From assembly GCF_003018255.1 (NCBI RefSeq), contig NZ_CP027440.1: a DNA stretch of 64,000 nt; one strand, given 5' to 3'. The DNA comes from Escherichia coli. GTDB taxonomy: Bacteria > Pseudomonadota > Gammaproteobacteria > Enterobacterales > Enterobacteriaceae. Below are positions 3,238-47,992 of the stretch, piece by piece (within the stretch, counting starts at the first letter, position 1; every line of letters begins with the position of its first letter). A program made the position numbers and the translations under genes. The notes under the pieces are model-generated. The model was not told the origin of the DNA. It did not search any database and worked only from the letters and a program-made list of their open reading frames with translations.

Positions 3238-4098
3238 TTAATTATGATTACGCATTACCCCTTCCTGAACGGTCGAGGCAACCAGCACGCCATCCTGGGT
3301 ATAAAACTCACCGCGCACAAAGCCGCGAGCGCTGGACGCCGAGGTGCTCTCCACGCTATACAGCAGCCATTCATTCAAATTAAACGGGCGATGGAACCAC
3401 ATGGAATGGTCAATGGTGGCAATCTGAATCCCCGGTTCGAGAAAACCGATGCCGTGCGGCTGTAAAGCTACCGGCAGGAAATTAAGATCAGAAGCGTAAC
3501 CGAGCAGATACTGATGAACGCGCAGATCATCCGGCACGTTACCATTTGCGCGGATCCACACCTGACGATGCGGTTCTGCGACGTGCCCTTTCAGTGGGTT
3601 ATGAAACTCCACCGGACGGACTTCAAGCGGACGATCGCAGATGAATTTATCTTTCAGCACTGGCGGCAGCAGGTGCGCCAGCGATTGGGCGATTTGCGTT
3701 TCCGAAGGCAGGCCATCAGGCGCTGGCGCGGACGGCATTGTTTTTTGATGTTCGAAACCCGCTTCTGGTGCCTGGAAAGAGGCAGTCATATAAAAAATCG
3801 GTTTGCCGTTTTGAATAGCAGCAACCCGGCGGGCGCTGAAGCTGTTACCGTCACGCAGCGTTTCGACATCATAAATAATCGGCTTCTTACTATCGCCTGG
3901 GCGAAGAAAGTAGCTGTGAAACGAATGTACCAGCCGCTCTTCAGGGACGGTCTCTTTTGCAGCATACAAGGCCTGACCCACGACCTGGCCGCCAAACACC
4001 TGGCGTAAACCTAAATCTTCACTCTGGCCGCGAAAGAGTCCTTCCTCAATTTTTTCCAGATTTAACAATGTCAGTAAATTTTTTAGCGCCTGACTCAT
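3238..4098 (-). CDS. tesB: Acyl-CoA thioesterase II
   Basis: Product [31 protein letters not shown]...; start taken at internal Met of ORF 3238..4182. Confidence 0.9.
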
Positions 4099-4315
4099 AT
4101 AACTCTCCAGTAACAAAGCTGCCGCAGCAAGCCAAAGTGAGTTGAGTATAACGCAAATTTGCCACTGGTCCGATGGGTGCAATGGTCTGAATTACGGGCT
4201 AATTACAGGCAGAAATGCGTGATGTGTGCCACACTTGTTGACGTTACTATTTTGTTAACCACTCTTCCGGCGAGGAAAGTTAGCCCGCTGGTGCATTGAT
4301 AATAAGGAGAAGTGA

Positions 4316-4885
4316 ATGAAACTCGTGCACATGGCCAGTGGTTTAGCGGTTGCGATTGCGTTGGCGGCTTGCGCAGATAAAAGCGCGGATATTCAGACGC
4401 CAGCACCGGCTGCAAATACGTCTATTTCAGCAACACAACCTGCTATCCAGCAACCGAATGTCTCCGGTACCGTCTGGATCCGTCAGAAAGTCGCACTGCC
4501 GCCTGATGCTGTGCTGACCGTGACACTTTCTGACGCGTCGTTAGCCGATGCGCCGTCAAAAGTGCTGGCGCAGAAAGCGGTGCGTACCGAAGGTAAACAG
4601 TCACCATTCAGCTTTGTTCTGCCATTTAACCCGGCAGATGTTCAGCCGAACGCGCGTATTCTATTGAGTGCGGCGATTACCGTGAATGACAAACTGGTAT
4701 TTATTACCGATACCGTTCAGCCGGTGATCAATCAGGGCGGAACTAAAGCCGACCTGACATTGGTGCCGGTGCAGCAAACCGCCGTGCCGGTTCAGGCCAG
4801 CGGTGGCGCAACGGCTACCGTACCTTCGACTTCACCAACTCAGGTGAATCCGTCTTCGGCAGTTCCAGCTCCTACGCAATATTAA
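4316..4885 (+). CDS. ybaY: Lipoprotein YbaY
   Basis: Signal peptide with lipobox LAAC, 189 aa, Pro/Thr-rich C-terminus. Confidence 0.85.
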   Translation: MKLVHMASGLAVAIALAACADKSADIQTPAPAANTSISATQPAIQQPNVSGTVWIRQKVALPPDAVLTVTLSDASLADAPSKVLAQKAVRTEGKQSPFSFVLPFNPADVQPNARILLSAAITVNDKLVFITDTVQPVINQGGTKADLTLVPVQQTAVPVQASGGATATVPSTSPTQVNPSSAVPAPTQY

Positions 4886-4915
4886 GCGCAGTTAACCCTC
4901 TCCGCCCGGAGAGGG

Positions 4916-5305
4916 TTAGTAGTTCCAGCGATAACGCTGCAAGTCGATTTGCCCGCTTCCCGATACCATCACACCTTCTGCCAGTAATGCCTGTCGTTGA
5001 CGCTGTAAATCCGGTCCGGTTAGCGAAATTGTGCCGTGGCGATTAACCACCCGGTGCCAGGGCAAGGTGCTGCCTTCGGGGAGACGCTTTAACACACCGC
5101 CTACCTGGCGCGCGGCGCGCGGCGATCCCGCCAGTTTCGCCACATCACCGTAAGTGGTGACATAGCCTTCGGGAATAGCGGCGACGATTTGCCAGACGCG
5201 TTGGGGAAATGAATCTTCTTTTTCCATCTTTTCTTCCTGAGGTAATTTTTCAGCATAATCTGGAAAAACGCCCGAGTGAAGCCGCATTGCGCAAGAAACC
5301 AGCAT
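4916..5305 (-). CDS. ybaZ: Alkyltransferase-like protein (Ogt-family DNA-binding domain, no catalytic Cys)
   Basis: Product ...YGDVAKLAGSPRAARQVGGVL...LPWHRVVN; start placed at internal Met (ORF 4916..5326). Confidence 0.8.
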   Translation of the reverse strand: MLVSCAMRLHSGVFPDYAEKLPQEEKMEKEDSFPQRVWQIVAAIPEGYVTTYGDVAKLAGSPRAARQVGGVLKRLPEGSTLPWHRVVNRHGTISLTGPDLQRQRQALLAEGVMVSGSGQIDLQRYRWNY

Positions 5306-5381
5306 CTGGCACGCAATGGGTTGCAATTAGCCGGGGCAGCAGTGATAATGCGCCTGCGCGTTGGTTCTCAACGCTCTCAAT

Positions 5382-5495
5382 GGGGGCTCTGTTGGTTCTC
5401 CCGCAACGCTACTCTGTTTACCAGGTCAGGTCCGGAAGGAAGCAGCCAAGGCAGATGACGCGTGTGCCGGGATGTAGCTGGCAGGGCCCCCACCC
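5382..5495 (+). ncRNA. ffs: 4.5S RNA (signal recognition particle RNA)
   Basis: 114-nt sequence gggggctctgttggttctcccgcaacgc...ggcagggcccccaccc matches the 4.5S RNA sequence recalled from memory; located between ybaZ and ybaA as in K-12. Confidence 0.95.
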
Positions 5496-5605
5496 ATTTC
5501 TGCCTCCCCCCGTTTCGTCAAAAAATCCCAACATGGCTAAACTTTAACCACAACTGACGTCGCAAGAATTGTCTGGCTGCGCAGTACGCTTCGGAGGTAT
5601 GTCTG

Positions 5606-5959
5606 ATGAAGTATGTTGATGGTTTTGTTGTTGCCGTTCCTGCCGATAAAAAGGATGCCTATCGGGAAATGGCCGCTAAGGCCGCGCCATTATTTAAAGA
5701 GTTCGGTGCGCTTCGTATTGTCGAATGCTGGGCCAGCGATGTACCGGATGGTAAAGTGACCGATTTTCGTATGGCGGTGAAAGCGGAAGAGAATGAAGAG
5801 GTTGTCTTTAGCTGGATTGAATACCCTTCAAAAGAGGTCCGCGACGCTGCTAATCAAAAGATGATGTCGGACCCACGGATGAAAGAGTTCGGCGAGTCCA
5901 TGCCGTTTGACGGCAAGCGAATGATCTATGGTGGATTCGAATCAATCATCGACGAGTAG
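5606..5959 (+). CDS. ybaA: DUF1428 family protein YbaA
   Basis: 117-aa ORF at the conserved position downstream of ffs. Confidence 0.8.
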   Translation: MKYVDGFVVAVPADKKDAYREMAAKAAPLFKEFGALRIVECWASDVPDGKVTDFRMAVKAEENEEVVFSWIEYPSKEVRDAANQKMMSDPRMKEFGESMPFDGKRMIYGGFESIIDE

Positions 5960-6000
5960 GTAGCGTGACGGGCTGTGCGGCGTGCCGTCAGCCCTAAAAT

Positions 6001-7557
6001 TCACAAATGTTGCTCGGCCCAGCGTAAGAAATCCTCTTTCGGTAATGCCTTGCTGTAGAGCCAGCCCTGACCGTAGTGCACGCCATGCTGGCGTAACCAC
6101 TCTTCTTGTTTACTGGTTTCGATTCCCTCCGCTACCATTTTCAGTTTCAGTGTTTTTGCCATTTCGATGATATGCGGCGTGACATTTTTATATTCCAGCG
6201 CATCAACGAAAGATTTATCGATCTTCAGAATGTCGACATCCAGATCCTGTAAATAACTTAAACTTGAATACCCCGTACCAAAATCATCGAGATAAATTTC
6301 ATGGCCCGCCTCCCGGTAGCGAGAAATTATCGGGGCGCTGGTTTTCGGATCGGCAAACTCGCGTTCAGTGAGTTCAAGCGCGATCTGTCTGGGATTAACC
6401 TGATAGTGATTGATCATTTCACGCAGCAATTGCGGGATTTTTTCCGAGGTGAGCACGGTGGATTCAAGATTGATCGAAATATGCTGCTGCGGATGCTGAC
6501 GCAGCCAGTCGCCCATATCTTCGAAGACGCTTCTTATGATCAGTAGCGTCAACGGCTCAGAAAGGCCCGTTTGCTGTGCCAGCGGAATAAAACTATCTGG
6601 TGACAACCAACTACCGTCTGTCTGCGGCCAGCGCGCCAGTGCCTCAGCACCGACAATTTTGCCATTGGCTAAGGAGACAATCGGCTGATAGTGCACGCAA
6701 ATATCACGATTTTCGATAGCATCCTGCAGCCGATGATGCGGTGACTGGATACGGCGCAAAATACGCAGCACAAACATCGCTGCCAGCAGGCCAATCACCA
6801 ACCCGAGCGGTAACCAAATAAAGACTTGCCGATGCCAGCCTTTCTGCAACATTTTCGTTGAAGACCAGGTGATGATCGAAATATTCATTTCCGGGAAGGG
6901 CAGGATATCGTAAATGATTCCATTATTTTCGATATGCTCACCGGGTGTTTTTTGTAGTCTGGTAATAATTCCCTGAGCAATTTCATCGCTGCTGGTTATC
7001 ACAACGTTATGGGCATTGCCAATAATGGCGGCATCAATTTGCCATGAGCTATAGGGAATGACATCAATAAAGGAAGCGGGGTCGATCATGACGACATAAT
7101 GTGCCGTTCCCATGGCAACCATGTAACGGATAATGCCTAAATCGTTATGCGATGTTAACCAGACACGATAACCATCTTTCGAAATTTTACCTGGCTCGGG
7201 GAAGGTATCGGGCGGGCTTTCATGCTCCAGAGACGAACACTGGGGAACGTTGTTATCGATATAAACCACTTCCTGAATATAGCGATAACTGTAAGATACC
7301 CGACGCATTTCCATGAGATGGGCTTCGCTACAGGCAGCGCCTTGCCATCTTTCCAGCTCTTGCAGCGCATCTTTCCCTTGTGTCGCCACCTTATTGGCCC
7401 GAATAGCGACGCGGGAGGAATACGTATTCAGCTCTTCAATAAATGATGTTTCTACCTGCTGATGGGCCAGCCAGATGCTTAAGCCGACAGGCAGCAATAC
7501 TGAAAGAATCAGTACTCCCGAAATAAGGCCGACCAGATGTCGTGTTCTCACCAGCAT
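6001..7557 (-). CDS. pdeB: c-di-GMP phosphodiesterase (CSS + EAL domains)
   Basis: 518-aa ORF with N-terminal TM/periplasmic region and C-terminal EAL motifs (EALARW, DDFGTGYSSL). Confidence 0.9.
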   Translation of the reverse strand: MLVRTRHLVGLISGVLILSVLLPVGLSIWLAHQQVETSFIEELNTYSSRVAIRANKVATQGKDALQELERWQGAACSEAHLMEMRRVSYSYRYIQEVVYIDNNVPQCSSLEHESPPDTFPEPGKISKDGYRVWLTSHNDLGIIRYMVAMGTAHYVVMIDPASFIDVIPYSSWQIDAAIIGNAHNVVITSSDEIAQGIITRLQKTPGEHIENNGIIYDILPFPEMNISIITWSSTKMLQKGWHRQVFIWLPLGLVIGLLAAMFVLRILRRIQSPHHRLQDAIENRDICVHYQPIVSLANGKIVGAEALARWPQTDGSWLSPDSFIPLAQQTGLSEPLTLLIIRSVFEDMGDWLRQHPQQHISINLESTVLTSEKIPQLLREMINHYQVNPRQIALELTEREFADPKTSAPIISRYREAGHEIYLDDFGTGYSSLSYLQDLDVDILKIDKSFVDALEYKNVTPHIIEMAKTLKLKMVAEGIETSKQEEWLRQHGVHYGQGWLYSKALPKEDFLRWAEQHL

Positions 7558-41433: not shown

Positions 41434-42726
41434 ATGATGAACACGGAAGGTAATAACGATAACAAACCCCTCGGTCTATGGAACGTCGTTTCCATCGGTA
41501 TTGGGGCAATGGTGGGGGCGGGGATCTTCGCGCTGCTGGGGCAGGCTGCGTTGCTAATGGAAGCCTCGACCTGGGTCGCCTTTGCTTTTGGCGGTATTGT
41601 GGCGATGTTTTCCGGTTATGCCTATGCGCGCCTAGGGGCGAGCTATCCCAGCAATGGCGGTATTATCGACTTCTTTCGTCGCGGATTAGGCAACGGCGTC
41701 TTTTCGCTGGCACTCTCGTTATTGTACCTGTTGACGCTGGCGGTGAGCATCGCCATGGTCGCCCGTGCTTTTGGCGCTTATGCCGTGCAGTTTTTGCATG
41801 AAGGCAGTCAGGAGGAGCACCTTATATTGCTCTACGCGTTGGGGATCATTGCGGTGATGACGCTTTTCAACTCCTTAAGCAACCATGCGGTAGGGCGGCT
41901 GGAAGTGATCCTCGTCGGCATTAAAATGATGATCCTGTTATTGCTGATCATTGCCGGTGTCTGGTCGCTGCAACCGGCGCATATTTCCGTCTCTGCGCCC
42001 CCCAGCTCCGGTGCGTTCTTCTCCTGTATCGGGATAACCTTCCTTGCCTATGCGGGCTTTGGCATGATGGCGAACGCGGCGGATAAAGTGAAAGATCCGC
42101 AGGTCATTATGCCACGGGCGTTTCTGGTGGCGATTGGCGTTACCACGTTGCTTTATATCTCGCTGGCGCTGGTTTTGCTTAGCGATGTATCGGCATTAGA
42201 GTTAGAAAAATATGCCGATACCGCCGTAGCGCAGGCTGCTTCTCCGCTGCTCGGGCATGTGGGTTATGTGATCGTCGTCATCGGCGCTTTACTGGCGACG
42301 GCTTCAGCCATAAACGCGAACCTGTTCGCCGTGTTTAACATCATGGACAACATGGGCAGCGAACGCGAACTGCCGAAGCTAATGAATAAATCCCTGTGGC
42401 GGCAGAGTACCTGGGGCAACATCATTGTCGTGGTGCTGATTATGCTGATGACGGCGGCGCTGAATTTAGGCTCACTCGCCAGCGTTGCCAGCGCCACCTT
42501 TTTGATCTGCTATCTGGCGGTGTTTGTGGTGGCGATCCGCCTGCGTCATGATATTCACGCCTCGTTGCCGATTCTTATCGTTGGTACGTTGGTTATGTTG
42601 TTGGTGATCGTTGGCTTTATCTACAGTCTCTGGTCCCAGGGCAGCCGTGCGCTGATATGGATTATTGGCGCACTCTTACTCAGCCTTATTGTGGCAATGG
42701 TCATGAAGCGCAATAAAACTGTATAA
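41434..42726 (+). CDS. ybaT: APC-family amino acid permease
   Basis: 430-aa 12-TM product immediately after glsA. Confidence 0.9.
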   Translation: MMNTEGNNDNKPLGLWNVVSIGIGAMVGAGIFALLGQAALLMEASTWVAFAFGGIVAMFSGYAYARLGASYPSNGGIIDFFRRGLGNGVFSLALSLLYLLTLAVSIAMVARAFGAYAVQFLHEGSQEEHLILLYALGIIAVMTLFNSLSNHAVGRLEVILVGIKMMILLLLIIAGVWSLQPAHISVSAPPSSGAFFSCIGITFLAYAGFGMMANAADKVKDPQVIMPRAFLVAIGVTTLLYISLALVLLSDVSALELEKYADTAVAQAASPLLGHVGYVIVVIGALLATASAINANLFAVFNIMDNMGSERELPKLMNKSLWRQSTWGNIIVVVLIMLMTAALNLGSLASVASATFLICYLAVFVVAIRLRHDIHASLPILIVGTLVMLLVIVGFIYSLWSQGSRALIWIIGALLLSLIVAMVMKRNKTV

Positions 42727-42850
42727 CATCTCTCTGTGCGCAGTACCTCCTGTATTATTGTGGTGGCGGTCGATATTCGCACTGGCAAAAAAACGTGCTT
42801 GAATATCTGTTGAAACCCTTTAACAAAGCACAGGAGGCGTTGCGCGAACG

Positions 42851-43258
42851 ATGAACATTAGCGATGTAGCAAAAATTACCGGCCTGACCAGCAAAGCCAT
42901 TCGCTTCTATGAAGAGAAGGGGCTGGTGACGCCGCCGATGCGCAGCGAAAACGGTTATCGCACCTACACGCAGCAGCATCTCAACGAACTGACCTTACTG
43001 CGCCAGGCACGCCAGGTGGGCTTTAACCTGGAGGAGAGCGGCGAACTGGTGAATCTGTTTAACGATCCGCAGCGTCACAGCGCCGACGTCAAACGTCGTA
43101 CGCTGGAGAAAGTGGCGGAGATCGAACAGCATATCGAAGAACTGCAATCCATGCGTAACCAGCTGCTGGCGCTGGCGAATGCCTGCCCCGGTGATGACAG
43201 CGCCGACTGCCCGATTATCGAAAATCTCTCCGGCTGCTGTCATCATCGGGCGGGGTGA
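42851..43258 (+). CDS. cueR: Copper-responsive MerR-family regulator
   Basis: 135-aa product [26 protein letters not shown]... with C-terminal metal-binding [10 protein letters not shown]. Confidence 0.97.
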
Positions 43259-43989
43259 TTAAGGCTTGCGAAAATAGTCGTCCATTATTTTCGTCAGCTC
43301 CGGACGTTCCCCGTCATCATTGATGGCAAAATCCAGAAAAAAAGCATCTGCTTGCGGCGTTCGGTTTTGCGCCATCAACCGGAAGGTGAGGGGGCCTGAC
43401 CAGGTTTCGGATGGGCTGATGTGCTTATCAGGGCCGAAACTCTCCCATGCGTTGGGCGGTAATGTTTTGCACGCGGTGAGTTTTGGTATGTGGTATTGCA
43501 GCTCTGTTTTGTGCAGACATTCCCCGCCAGGAAATACCAGGGTTTGTTGCTCATCATTAAAATGGGTTGCCGTGCTGAGCACCAGTGTTTTGAGCGGTCG
43601 CCCTTCCAGCGCGGCGGCAGTAGCCTTATGGTGTCCGTCGAGCAGAACGCAGAGATAGGAATCAGGGAGATACCAGGCCAGAGCGCGGGCGATTCCAGTT
43701 TTCGAGAGCAGACAAAAACCGGGCGGCTCCCTGTTCACCCTCCGCAAAACCGCTGTAGACAAATTCCGCACAGGTAGGGCAACCAGCCTCGGACCAGAAA
43801 CGTATTAACGGGACATCCTTGCCAGCAGAGCGAATGGATAAGACCGTGCGAGTGCGGATCGTAAATCACACATTGACGCAGAAATCCTTTCCCGGACTTC
43901 ACCGAAAAAATGACGCCCGCAGCGGTATTTTTCAGCAGACGTACTTCAGGTTTTCGAAAGGGGAAAAAGCATGGCCACTCCTTAGCCAA
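43259..43989 (-). pseudogene. Hypothetical gene split into two overlapping reading frames (43735..43989 then 43259..43804); apparent frameshift
   Basis: Two minus-strand ORFs in different frames overlap at 43738-43804; the downstream frame is open upstream of its first start codon; no recognisable family. Confidence 0.4.
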
Positions 43990-44060
43990 AATTTCAGTTC
44001 CCTGAACTGTGCCAGAAAATTACGCTGGTGACTATTGCTCTGGAAATGGAAACAGTGTCC

Positions 44061-44267
44061 TTACCCATTAATCCCCGTTTGTACCGAAAGAATATGTTGC
44101 AAACTTTCTACCATAATGCGCCCCGACTGAAATAAGCCTTCCTGGATTTCATTGTTAACATTCACAGCGTGAACCAGGGAGGCTAATAACACCACTTGCA
44201 AGAAGGCAAAAATAAACGCACCGATAATCATAATATGCGTCAGGGGGATTTTCCTTTGCTCCTTCAT
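44061..44267 (-). CDS. Small single-pass membrane protein (68 aa), hypothetical
   Basis: Start overlaps the upstream lipoprotein stop (ATGA); one hydrophobic helix IMIIGAFIFAFLQVVLLASLV. Confidence 0.5.
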   Translation of the reverse strand: MKEQRKIPLTHIMIIGAFIFAFLQVVLLASLVHAVNVNNEIQEGLFQSGRIMVESLQHILSVQTGING

Positions 44268-44686
44268 TTTAAATAACCCACAAACTGGCCTTCTTTCATT
44301 AAGGCGACTTTTCCTGTGTGATGATAAACAATGACATTATACAGACCCGACTGATAAACCGTGGCATCGGCATTATCTTCATCTATGGCACATAATGAAT
44401 CATTGAGATAAGCAAAATTCTTACTACTCATTCTAAAGGTCATGCCAAATCCTTTATAAATGGCTTTTTTTGCCGCCTGGGCATGTTGTGCGGCTTCTGC
44501 ATTTTTAAATGCCTGCGCTTCAGAAGCACTTAAAATAGCCGTCTGGCGCTGCTGTTCTGCGAGATAACAGGTGTCATGGCTGACGCCCTGCGCCTGACAA
44601 TCTGCGATGCGGGAAGCGGGTGAGCTACAGCCAGCCAGTAATATAACCGCCAGCAGGGAAAAGGATTTAATGGAGCTATTCATCAT
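44264..44686 (-). CDS. Putative lipoprotein (140 aa), hypothetical
   Basis: Signal peptide with lipobox LLAGC; 4 Cys; downstream of the autotransporter gene on the same strand. Confidence 0.6.
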   Translation of the reverse strand: MMNSSIKSFSLLAVILLAGCSSPASRIADCQAQGVSHDTCYLAEQQRQTAILSASEAQAFKNAEAAQHAQAAKKAIYKGFGMTFRMSSKNFAYLNDSLCAIDEDNADATVYQSGLYNVIVYHHTGKVALMKEGQFVGYLK

Positions 44687-44771
44687 TGTTAACCTTAAAT
44701 AATGTGCGAATTAATGAAGAGGTGAAACCCGGCAAGCTTCCTTGCTCTTATTTATATTGAGGATTGAAATA

Positions 44772-45788
44772 TTAGAACGAATATCCTACGCCGACACCTG
44801 CGCCGAAATCAGATTGCGTATCCGCAGAAATACCGGCTTTAAGTACCGTATGCGTTCCGGCATTAAAAGATGTTCCGACAGACACCGCAGATTCACCGTT
44901 GAAGGTTCCCGCTCCCGCTGACACCATCATCACGTCACCGGTTTTAACCTGTGGTTGTGAGGCGATAGCGATGGCAGATGCAGTTCCCGCATTGGCTTCT
45001 TTACGGTTGTCCTCAACTTCGTTTTTCAGCGAACTGTAATGGTTATTGAGCGTGTTAATTTGTTGGCTGTTATCTGCGACCCGTTTTTGCGTGTTGCTTA
45101 ACTGTTGCTGCGTTTGTGCGGAATCTTGTCTCAGACTTTCAATTTGCTCATGTGCCTGGACAGACTTCTGCGCCAGACTTTGCATTTGTTTATCGTATTG
45201 AGCCCTTTCTTTTTGCTGTTGTGCTGCCACATCGGTTGTCAGTGCATTCATTTTCTGCCCTTGTTCCGTGGTAGTGCGCTGATTAGCCTCATTTTGAGCC
45301 GCCAGTCTGGCATTAATCATCTCCTGATAATGCGCAGTATTTTGCGTATCTCCAGTCGCGGCGAGCGTTTTTTGTGTGGCTACGATCTGCGCCTGTTGCT
45401 CTGTAATTTGCGTTTGCTGGGCATCAGTTACCGCAGACTGTCGGGCGTTGATCATGCTCTGATAACGGGCAGGTGTCTGTGTATCACCTGTAGCGGCAAC
45501 GGTTTTTTGTCCTGCGTCAGGATCTGTCTGGACAGTGGGAGTCTGAGTGGTATCAGGTGTTTCAGAAGGGATGTAGTGATGTTCAGTCAAATAGGTATAC
45601 GCAGCGGGGCTGTTGTCTGTGCGTTCTAAAAAGCGGGTAATCTTCTGCTCAATCTCCGATTGCGACATGCCAGAGTTAATGGCTGAAAGCTCTGTTGCCG
45701 CCGCTTCAATGGTATCACCAGCTAAAACAACAGGGCTGGATGTTGCTGAAATTATGAGTGCCAGTAAAGCTACGTTTACAGTTTTCAT
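44772..45788 (-). CDS. Trimeric autotransporter adhesin-like protein (type Vc, YadA-like C-terminal anchor), 338 aa
   Basis: Signal peptide MKTVNVALLALIISATSSPVVLA; Gln-rich coiled-coil stalk with a tandem repeat (ATGDTQ..YQ.MINAR); C-terminal anchor ...AGTASAIAIASQPQ...GAGVGVGYSF ending in aromatic residue. Confidence 0.75.
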   Translation of the reverse strand: MKTVNVALLALIISATSSPVVLAGDTIEAAATELSAINSGMSQSEIEQKITRFLERTDNSPAAYTYLTEHHYIPSETPDTTQTPTVQTDPDAGQKTVAATGDTQTPARYQSMINARQSAVTDAQQTQITEQQAQIVATQKTLAATGDTQNTAHYQEMINARLAAQNEANQRTTTEQGQKMNALTTDVAAQQQKERAQYDKQMQSLAQKSVQAHEQIESLRQDSAQTQQQLSNTQKRVADNSQQINTLNNHYSSLKNEVEDNRKEANAGTASAIAIASQPQVKTGDVMMVSAGAGTFNGESAVSVGTSFNAGTHTVLKAGISADTQSDFGAGVGVGYSF

Positions 45789-46154
45789 TCATTTTCTCTT
45801 GTTCAAAATAAGTCGCATTAATGTTTCTATAAGAAACAAATAATATTATTTTAAGAAATAAACTGCGTTGCAATTTAATCGAAATCTACGCCGCCATTTG
45901 TGTGATGTAAAGCGCATTTTTGTCTGGTGTAAGCGTAAACACCACCAATAAGAAACAAAAAATGTTTCTTATATAAATAAAATCGAAAATCATTTTGTGC
46001 TCTTTCAATGTAAAAAAGAGTAAAGACTTGTTTTGATAAGCGAAATAAATTCTGTTTCTGGACTAAACGTGAAGCGGTTCCTGATGTGTGCTAAAATGCG
46101 TTTCTTTGATAAATCTCAATTTTTAAGAGGTTTACGCCAGGCAGGAAAATTTAA

Positions 46155-46517
46155 ATGAATGAATTTGAGAAGATTTTTAATGAAATGAATCTGGACCGGG
46201 CATTGTTACCGATCCTTTTTCGTTCGAACCGGTCGACAGTGTGGAAGTATTTAAGCGGCGATAGTACGGCTCCTGCCTCTGCCATGTCGCTGATCATGCT
46301 GTTGCAGTTGATCCAGAAACGAAACCCCGATCTGTTAGCCGAATGGTTAACGCTTTCTGATTTCACCATTCCGCCAGAAGTTTACCTGGACCAACCTGAT
46401 TACTGGAAAGGGTGGGTGTATACCCAACACAAGGTCAATAAAAACGTCCTGGAATATCTAAAAAAACACTATCCGGATGAAGACCAAAAAAGTATGGGTA
46501 AAGGCCGGGAAGAGTAA
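46155..46517 (+). CDS. Hypothetical protein (120 aa), divergent from the autotransporter operon
   Basis: ORF with ATG start after an AT-rich 365-bp intergenic region; no family recognised. Confidence 0.4.
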   Translation: MNEFEKIFNEMNLDRALLPILFRSNRSTVWKYLSGDSTAPASAMSLIMLLQLIQKRNPDLLAEWLTLSDFTIPPEVYLDQPDYWKGWVYTQHKVNKNVLEYLKKHYPDEDQKSMGKGREE

Positions 46518-46519
46518 TT

Positions 46520-46620
46520 TTGCCTCTACTCGGCTATATGCCGGATGCGGCGCAAGCGCCTTATCTGGCCTACGATTCGGGCATATTTTGTAGGCATGAT
46601 AAGACGCGCCAGCGTCGCAT
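46520..46620. repeat. REP/BIME elements (two inverted REP units) at the island/ybbJ junction
   Basis: gccggatgcggcgcaagcgccttatctggcctac ... gtaggcatgataagacgcgccagcgtcgcatcaggc. Confidence 0.75.
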
Positions 46621-47078
46621 CAGGCGATGACCGCACGGATAATCAGCGTTATCCCTTCTATCGCAATCACCTCAACATGCGTACCTGCACTGAGATCCTC
46701 GCTGGCGCTGACAGGCCATGAACTGTCACCGACGCGCATATGACCACGCCCGTTGACCAGCGGAGATTCCAGAACAAAACGTCGGCCAATCAACTGCTGC
46801 CCGCGCTGGTTTAAATGACTGTCGCTGTGCTTTTGTTCGCGCACCCGCCGCGACAACCATTTCCACCACAGCCAGGCGGCGAGCAGCGTCAGGACGGCAA
46901 ACATTACCCCTTGCCACTCCCAACCCAGCGGCAGCAACCAGACCACCAGACCGGTAATCACCGCTGCCACGCCGCTCCACAACAGATAACCATTGCCGCC
47001 CAACATCTCGGCTGCCAGCAGCAAACCGCCGAGACTTAGCCAGAAAATATGTGGATGAACGACCATTAACTCCATCAT
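46620..47078 (-). CDS. ybbJ: NfeD-family inner membrane protein
   Basis: 152-aa product overlapping qmcA by 4 nt. Confidence 0.85.
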
Positions 47079-47992
47079 GGCTGAGTCCGTTTGTTGGCGC
47101 TGTCTTTCACCAGCTCAGCAATCCCGGCAATCGACCCCATCAGGCTGCTGGCCTCTAATGGCATCATCACCACTTTGCTGTTACTGGACGAACCGATCTG
47201 CTGTAACGCTTCGGTGTATTTCTGTGCGACGAAGTAGTTCACCGCCTGAATATCACCGGAGGCAATGGCTTCAGACACCATTTTAGTGGCGCGGGCTTCT
47301 GCTTCAGCGGAACGTTCACGCGCTTCAGCCTGTAAAAACGCCGACTGACGTTCGCCTTCCGCTTTCAGGATTTGCGACTGTTTTTCACCTTCGGCTTTGA
47401 GGATTTCCGCCTGACGGATCCCTTCCGCTTCAAGGATGTAAGCGCGTTTGGTACGTTCCGCTTTCATCTGCGCGTTCATTGAAGAGATAAGCTCTGCCGG
47501 TGGGCGCACGTCGCGAATTTCAATACGGGTGACTTTAATCCCCCACGGGTTGGTGGCCTCATCGACAATACGCAGCAGGCGTGAGTTGATGCTGTCGCGC
47601 TGAGAGAGCATTTCGTCAAGTTCCATTGAACCCAGCACGGTACGGATGTTAGTCATGGTCAGGTTGATGATCGCCAGCTCCAGATTGCTGACTTCATAAG
47701 CCGCGCGCGGCGCGTCAATCACCTGAATAAAGCACACGGCGTCGATGGTAACGTTGGCGTTATCTTTCGAGATAACTTCCTGGGAAGGGATATCGAGCAC
47801 TTGCTCCATCATATTGATCTTGCGACCAATGCGATCCATAAACGGCACCACCAGACTGAGCCCCGGCTGTAACGTTTTGGTATAGCGACCAAAACGTTCT
47901 ACTGTCCACTGATAGCCCTGCGGCACGATTTTGACGCCCGCGCCGACAATGACCAGCGCGACAAAAATGAGAATCGGGATAAAGATAAGCAT
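47075..47992 (-). CDS. qmcA: SPFH/band-7 (stomatin-like) protein QmcA
   Basis: 305-aa product with N-terminal TM and PHB domain. Confidence 0.9.

Follow-up and report, generated by a model that had tools for sequence, protein, structure and literature searches.

The cueR-ybbJ junction on Escherichia coli contig NZ_CP027440.1 (assembly GCF_003018255.1) carries a 3.4-kb segment that is genuine accessory DNA and already known, namely O-island 29 (OI-29) beside a decayed older resident gene. In the 64,000-nucleotide stretch analysed here (the window), the gap consists of two unrelated pieces with separate histories, termed piece A (positions 43259-43972) and piece B (44061-46517). It is probable that piece A is the wreck of an ancestral gene and piece B is OI-29, a cassette for a trimeric autotransporter (TAA) whose expression would be controlled by the divergently encoded protein z0640. 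The segment holds four intact genes and one pseudogene, not the five open reading frames (ORFs) of the original prediction, an earlier reading of the letters alone:

43259-43972, minus strand: pseudogene remnant of a 407-aa orphan gene, defined by alignment with intact copies; native ATG at 43972-43970.
44061-44267, minus strand: 68-aa single-pass membrane protein, from the ORF list and hydropathy.
44264-44686, minus strand: z0638, 140-aa lipoprotein with lipobox LAGC, Cys20 and Ser at +2.
44772-45788, minus strand: z0639 ('gmrA'), 338-aa headless YadA-family TAA, from Pfam, PDB and PHROG matches.
45789-46154, no strand: AT-rich divergent control region, 30.6% GC.
46155-46517, plus strand: z0640, 120-aa cytoplasmic protein with a weak likeness to the MqsA/HigA2-type XRE helix-turn-helix (HTH) in its N-terminal ~65 residues.
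46518-46619, no strand: repetitive extragenic palindromic (REP)-type repeats between z0640 and the ybbJ stop.

The ORF scan places cueR at 42851-43258 (plus strand) and ybbJ at 46620-47078 (minus strand), with ybaT (41434-42726) and qmcA (47075-47992, minus strand) on either side. In K-12 MG1655, cueR (513993-514400) and ybbJ (514401-514859) are separated by 0 bp, and the window has 3,361 extra bases at this point, up to 46619. The original prediction had given a few tens of bp for K-12. Its other local observations agree with the sequence: the cueR TGA at 43256-43258 directly abuts the minus-strand stop at 43259-43261, the divergent region at 45789-46154 is AT-rich, and REP-type repeats lie beside ybbJ. 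Strain JNE23-011 matches the window at 100% identity.

The distribution of the segment was determined in 5,426 complete E. coli genomes by megablast of the whole segment, followed by separate searches of its parts, and the two parts occur independently of each other. A K-12-like empty junction is found in 3,205 genomes, the cueR-proximal 735 bp are present in 965, the 2.46-kb cassette in 1,416 (1,402 near full length) and both parts together in 162; four site states cover essentially all genomes. OI-29 is present in 26% of complete genomes and the composite with the pseudogene in 3%, and this composite is a minor variant of a common, known island. The GC comparison proposed with the original prediction gives 52.8% for piece A, like the core flanks (53-57%), and 43.5% for piece B. 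The earlier claim that the segment is absent from K-12 and accessory is borne out by the MG1655 junction and the many empty sites, while the picture of one strain-specific insertion gives way to a mosaic of an ancestral remnant and an island shared by 1,416 genomes.

Piece B is OI-29 of the O157:H7 strain EDL933, comprising z0638-z0640, a horizontally acquired four-gene cassette that belongs to pathogenic E. coli. In the O157 strain 2149, OI-29 also lies between cueR and ybbJ, and the proteins of the window are 95% (TAA), 98% (lipoprotein), 98.5% (68-aa protein) and 99% (z0640) identical to those of O157. The primers of Yang et al. (2018) map exactly to the lipoprotein, TAA and 120-aa ORFs, the latter being matched by the z0640 primer arm. 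The original prediction could name none of these genes; z0638-z0640 had already been named and studied experimentally (PMC5826968). The 68-aa ORF was left unannotated in the original description of OI-29 in EDL933. It is a real gene, with orthologues of 34-43% identity at the same position in Pseudocitrobacter.

In Pseudocitrobacter the four-gene cassette is found between qmcA and fetA (loci L008-L010, at about 3470-6340), with order and orientation retained. A degraded copy is present in Symbiopectobacterium, again near NfeD/Band_7, and Enterobacter asburiae has the TAA-lipoprotein pair at an unrelated locus. The gene order, the ATGA overlap of two of the genes and the motifs of the control region are kept across genera, an argument for a joint action of the four genes. 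In different genera the cassette has thus come to lie, on two occasions, within a few kb of the NfeD/Band_7 pair.

Piece A is a damaged copy of a gene that is intact elsewhere. In Nissle 1917 (WP_000492611.1; locus L005:1501-2724), the uropathogenic strain 536, 83972 and O145 RM8843, the same position has an intact gene of 1,224 bp that codes for a hypothetical protein of 407 aa. Alignment with Nissle, O145, OV24 and the O2:H6 strain reveals a 225-bp in-frame deletion at 43395/43396, a 287-bp deletion at 43685/43686 with CGGGCG microhomology at its flanks, an inserted T near 43820 and an inserted A near 43968, in the first codons just past the native ATG. The NCBI annotation pipeline (PGAP) labels the piece 'frameshifted' in the identical strain JNE23-011. 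The original prediction had likewise called this gene frameshifted; the frameshifts are there, but so are the two internal deletions. The copy of the O2:H6 strain has the 287-bp deletion and one insertion as its only lesions and strains of the sequence type 131 (ST131) kind carry both deletions, which points to a stepwise decay.

In Escherichia albertii (about 90% identity) and Superficieibacter electus (47-48% identity) a homologue lies in the same slot, with ybbJ (NfeD) on one side and cueR (MerR) on the other. This shared position argues that the gene is an old resident and that the abutment of cueR and ybbJ in K-12 is a derived deletion. Judged from these sequence comparisons, the 407-aa gene is the ancestral occupant of the slot in Escherichia and its relatives and has been wholly lost in K-12. 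What the present strain has kept of it is a wreck that no longer functions.

The 407-aa protein represents an undescribed family, a solo gene that ranges from Enterobacteriaceae to Clostridia. No partner was common to the Salmonella and Clostridia contexts, and no partition or defence partners were found there. Its AlphaFold2 model is confident, and the family comprises an N-terminal beta domain, a middle domain and, at the C-terminal end, a helical repeat. A DGHH..A motif is invariant among the members, UniRef gives one of them the name 'ParB-like nuclease domain protein', and the top Foldseek matches are ParB/Srx-fold proteins at non-significant scores; the middle domain of this cytoplasmic protein is probably ParB/Srx-like. 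Pfam gave no match for 48 family members, ParBc included.

The largest gene of piece B encodes an autotransporter. The last 60 residues of z0639 (279-338) match the complete Pfam YadA_anchor model (PF03895, model positions 1-60 of 60, E 2.6e-11), the anchors of AtaA and Hia are matched in the PDB (1.5e-6 to 2e-5), and stalk and anchor together match the PHROG adhesin family phrog_17426 (4e-21). The PGAP name also points to a YadA-type autotransporter. As read from the sequence, the protein begins with a predicted Sec signal peptide (residues 1-24, MKTVNVALLALIISATSSPVVLAG followed by D after the cleavage site; hydrophobic core 6-24), and it ends in YSF, that is, with a terminal aromatic residue. 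The passenger consists of a variable N-terminal part and a Gln/Ala-rich stalk; Gln, Ala, Thr and Asn make up 54% of it, and it scores against coiled-coil proteins alone. Heads are common in TAAs and not obligatory. YadA head or stalk repeats were not matched in Pfam even at E<=10, and z0639 is therefore taken to be a short, headless TAA.

The length of the passenger varies among strains and genera (338, 436 and 363-473 aa). A 135-nt (45-codon) imperfect direct repeat lies within the passenger at 45286-45510. Together with the length differences between strains, it suggests that the exposed part grows and shrinks by way of repeats.

The z0638 gene begins 85 bp downstream of the TAA stop, and the ATG of the 68-aa ORF overlaps the z0638 stop (ATGA). 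The three genes form one leftward operon of z0639, the lipoprotein and the translationally coupled membrane protein. The lipoprotein has conserved Cys30 and Cys40, a long Ala/Gln-rich helix and a C-terminal 8-stranded beta barrel. The 68-aa protein has a positively charged N-terminus and a transmembrane helix at residues 14-32 (hydropathy 2.65). Like the 407-aa protein, both belong to families that had not been described, and their structure models are confident or usable. The proposal that z0638 is SadB or TpgA was rejected for lack of any sequence or fold similarity, and the BamE-like and OmpA-like domains of the TpgA type were not found in z0638. SadB of Salmonella SadA and TpgA of Acinetobacter AtaA are the only described TAA helpers (bioRxiv 10.64898/2026.01.22.700529).

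Three of the distant z0638 homologues adjoin genes for secreted Ala/Gln-rich proteins of 209-260 aa (neighbours L022:4816-5451, L023:3090-3872 and L024:1725-2354). These neighbours have in common a Gly/His-rich tail and the motif SLPANT..TINGxT..TTAG. A Rep3 plasmid contig carries one of the three loci, and L022 has a second copy of the lipoprotein beta domain.

The control region between z0639 and z0640 contains six GTTTCT motifs against 0.28 expected, a number that was reached in 0 of 20,000 simulations. Two pairs of motifs form palindromes, TGTTTCTataAGAAACA (45822-45838) and AGAAACAaaaaaTGTTTCT (45951-45969). The minus strand has promoter-like sites at 45911-45883 and 45873-45845, and one palindrome lies just downstream of the promoter-like site for the TAA operon. 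Conserved blocks read TACGCCGC...GTAAAGC and TGCTAAAATGCGTTTCTTTGATAAATCTCAATTTT, the latter an extended -10-like element at about 46089-46097, and these blocks are invariant in E. coli, Pseudocitrobacter and Symbiopectobacterium. Ahead of z0640, a further GTTTCT coincides with TGCTAAAAT, the conserved element that resembles an extended -10.

Profile searches with z0640 gave weak hits of one kind: in Pfam MqsA_antitoxin (E 0.12, best family member 0.012) and Xre-like-HTH (0.067), both below significance, and in the PDB HigA-2 as best match (E 0.58), in the same register as MqsA. Comparison by hhalign with an MqsA sequence gave a probability of 36%. The family is tiny, with 21 clusters in one search and only 19 matches among 1.84 billion representatives in the other; no remote homologues were found there, the 19 all being close family. 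z0640 is a candidate regulator of the island, and a likelier one than z0639. Its product would bind the GTTTCT repeats and control both divergent promoters. The z0639 protein would be a Sec substrate that inserts into the outer membrane via its YadA anchor and is displayed as a trimeric coiled-coil fibre whose N-terminal part varies between strains, and the lipoprotein and the 68-aa protein could take part in this display.

The combined reading of an ancestral wreck beside an autotransporter cassette with its own regulator meets several points that weigh against it. The HTH assignment of z0640 never reaches significance, and the ParB/Srx assignment of the 407-aa protein consists of one motif and non-significant Foldseek matches. 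The four more distant z0638 homologues (4 of 6 independent contexts) have no TAA neighbour, which weakens a dedicated helper role, and the fold of z0638 is not that of SadB or TpgA. Binding of the z0639 protein to the fliA promoter was reported by electrophoretic mobility shift assay (EMSA) and chromatin immunoprecipitation with quantitative PCR (ChIP-qPCR), z0639 alone complements the motility defect, mutants of z0638 and z0640 have no motility phenotype, and deletion of the whole island causes no adherence defect (PMC5826968). The stricter idea that a z0638 homologue always stands beside a TAA was rejected on the same 4 of 6 contexts.

An extended version of this reading joins the parts into a self-contained autotransporter module of three parts. 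In it z0639 is a surface fibre and not a transcription factor, the lipoprotein with its MliC/PliC-like barrel on a long helix and the 68-aa inner-membrane partner form a third kind of TAA helper or anchor, not described so far, z0640 is a private regulator that represents a small new HTH family and has GTTTCT as its operators, and the motility effect is an indirect effect on the envelope. As a whole this combination is tentative and rather unlikely.

Alternatively, z0639 could be a short TAA like Eib or DsrA that serves serum resistance or immunoglobulin binding, with the neighbouring genes as unrelated passengers. This would agree with the PHROG adhesin match over stalk and anchor, with phage-borne homologues at 32-41% identity, with a passenger that varies by strain in length and sequence as expected of an exposed antigen, and with the unchanged adherence of the OI-29 deletion mutant to HeLa or Caco-2 cells. 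No close similarity of z0639 to the solved EibD was seen, however, the PDB search having returned anchors alone, and the retention of gene order, ATGA overlap and control motifs by the four cassette genes across genera argues for a joint function. We regard an unaccompanied Eib/DsrA-like protein as unlikely.

Yang et al. (2018) named z0639 GmrA and described it as a "transcriptional activator of fliA" on the basis of a DNA-binding domain predicted with CDD and of EMSA and ChIP-qPCR on the fliA promoter (PMC5826968). By this account, z0639 acts in the cytoplasm, binds the fliA promoter and turns flagellar genes on, and OI-29 would be an island for motility regulation. Motility and flagellation are reduced in the OI-29 and gmrA deletion mutants, gmrA alone complements, the protein was His-tagged for EMSA and FLAG-tagged for ChIP-qPCR, and the same phenotype was seen in eight strains (PMC5826968). 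Later reviews repeat the claim and keep the transcription-factor label without mention of the YadA anchor.

The published function of z0639 nevertheless conflicts with what its sequence predicts. The gmrA deletion primers map to O157 positions L002:3664-3701 and 4716-4757 and flank exactly the YadA-family coding sequence at 3702-4718, which excludes a confusion of gene names. The ORF that they remove is the one for the autotransporter, with its Sec signal peptide, entire YadA anchor and aromatic last residue. Searches for a DNA-binding domain in z0639 with Pfam, NCBIfam and PADLOC gave nothing significant. The sub-threshold DNA-related matches, SMC (22 bits against a cut-off of 567), DndD, JetC and TMF_DNA_bd (E 0.074), are coiled-coil look-alikes. 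A His6 tag ahead of the signal peptide or a FLAG tag after the C-terminal Phe, a position taken from the construct name gmrA-3xFLAG, would each block normal export or insertion; from what is known of substrate recognition by Sec and BAM, the tagged proteins would have been kept from their normal compartment. The motility effect of the z0639 deletion may be real, and an indirect effect is more likely than z0639 acting as a DNA-binding activator. The reading of GmrA as a cytoplasmic activator appears quite improbable to us.

A single strain-specific insertion with an uncharacterised system such as defence or toxin, as the original prediction had it, would fit the absence from K-12, the low GC of the segment and three segment proteins without a Pfam or NCBIfam family, but is very improbable in view of the mosaic with a widespread island (26% of complete genomes), of PADLOC results that do not go beyond coiled-coil noise and of a segment that showed neither an integrase or transposase nor a link to phages or plasmids. 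A defence system was rejected after PADLOC had been run on all six ORF products and the intact 407-aa protein with nothing usable: five proteins had no match, and the TAA gave coiled-coil noise alone (E >= 1e-3). A prophage origin was set aside as the phage records contained distant stalk and anchor homologues alone, at 32-41% identity, and a plasmid origin as the only "plasmid" matches were 4.9-Mb records, apparently chromosomes filed as plasmids.

At the ybbJ edge, sub-threshold matches to the REP-derived Rfam family naRNA4 lie at 46503-46570 and 46593-46662, and short BLAST copies of the REP stretch 46518-46619 occur at other places in many genomes. The Rfam E-value scan of 42700-47200 found no RNA elements beyond these. 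The 3' end of ybbJ (46620-46650) differs in its last ~8 codons, which read ...IIRAVIA* in the window and ...HIRAVSS* in K-12, and in 1,334 genomes the best match of a K-12 cueR/ybbJ junction query is just 90-95% identical. Both differences indicate that haplotypes at the site are old or recombinant. On the other side of cueR, a 98-bp stretch (42757-42854) runs from just upstream of the gene into its start; in the identical strain, PGAP marks it as the remnant of an incomplete, frameshifted gene. At this point O157 and O145 have the end of an intact HlyD-family type I secretion adaptor gene, which overlaps cueR by 4 bp, and the stretch looks like the vestige of a lost type I secretion system/RTX island.

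These findings bear on how the locus is described. In the literature and reviews on enterohaemorrhagic E. coli, GmrA figures among the transcription factors gained by horizontal transfer where the sequence points to an outer-membrane autotransporter, and the HTH-like neighbour z0640 was never considered as a regulator. What counts as an "insertion relative to K-12" can turn out to be the reverse, since it is K-12 that has cleanly deleted an ancestral gene here, and intermediate states in the decay of the 407-aa gene are still segregating in E. coli. The interest of the segment lies in the mismatch between function and sequence of z0639, in z0640 as a candidate regulator, in the pair of lipoprotein and membrane protein, and in the 407-aa family.

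Compared with known systems, the window has OI-29 in the same slot beside ybbJ and with the same gene order as O157. In O157 the island begins 3 bp past the cueR stop and the 68-aa ORF is clipped by its last codons; nothing is left of the 407-aa gene, and the REP array on the ybbJ side is longer than that of the window. In the window and in O145 RM8843 (L006), by contrast, cueR is separated from the cassette by the 407-aa gene or what remains of it. The likeness of the 407-aa family to ParB/Srx-fold proteins (ParB, Noc, sulfiredoxin and the archaeal free serine kinase) consists of the DGHH..A motif and the non-significant Foldseek matches, and the family differs from them in its domain architecture, as a solo gene and as a pseudogene in the window.

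With MqsA/HigA2-type XRE proteins, residues ~5-63 of z0640 align in one register with the HTH, including the ...P..A..LI.LL....P.L..E tail, at sub-significance scores, and z0640 is divergent from the operon that it may control. Unlike MqsA/HigA2, it has neither a zinc-ribbon domain nor a toxin partner and carries a C-terminal extension of ~55 residues.

Among the short TAAs (type Vc secretion), z0639 shares its signal peptide, coiled-coil stalk and 60-residue YadA anchor with DsrA, with the Eib proteins encoded by E. coli prophages and with YadA-anchor proteins in general, whereas z0639 lacks YadA head and stalk repeats in Pfam, is chromosomal without phage context, has its own downstream lipoprotein and membrane-protein genes and is 32-41% identical to phage homologues. 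Like SadB and TpgA, the z0638 lipoprotein is a small envelope protein in an operon with a trimeric autotransporter, but its gene lies downstream rather than upstream and is followed by the extra coupled gene for the 68-aa membrane protein. The 2026 survey of TAA helpers required a YadA head, and the headless z0639 would fall outside it (bioRxiv 10.64898/2026.01.22.700529).

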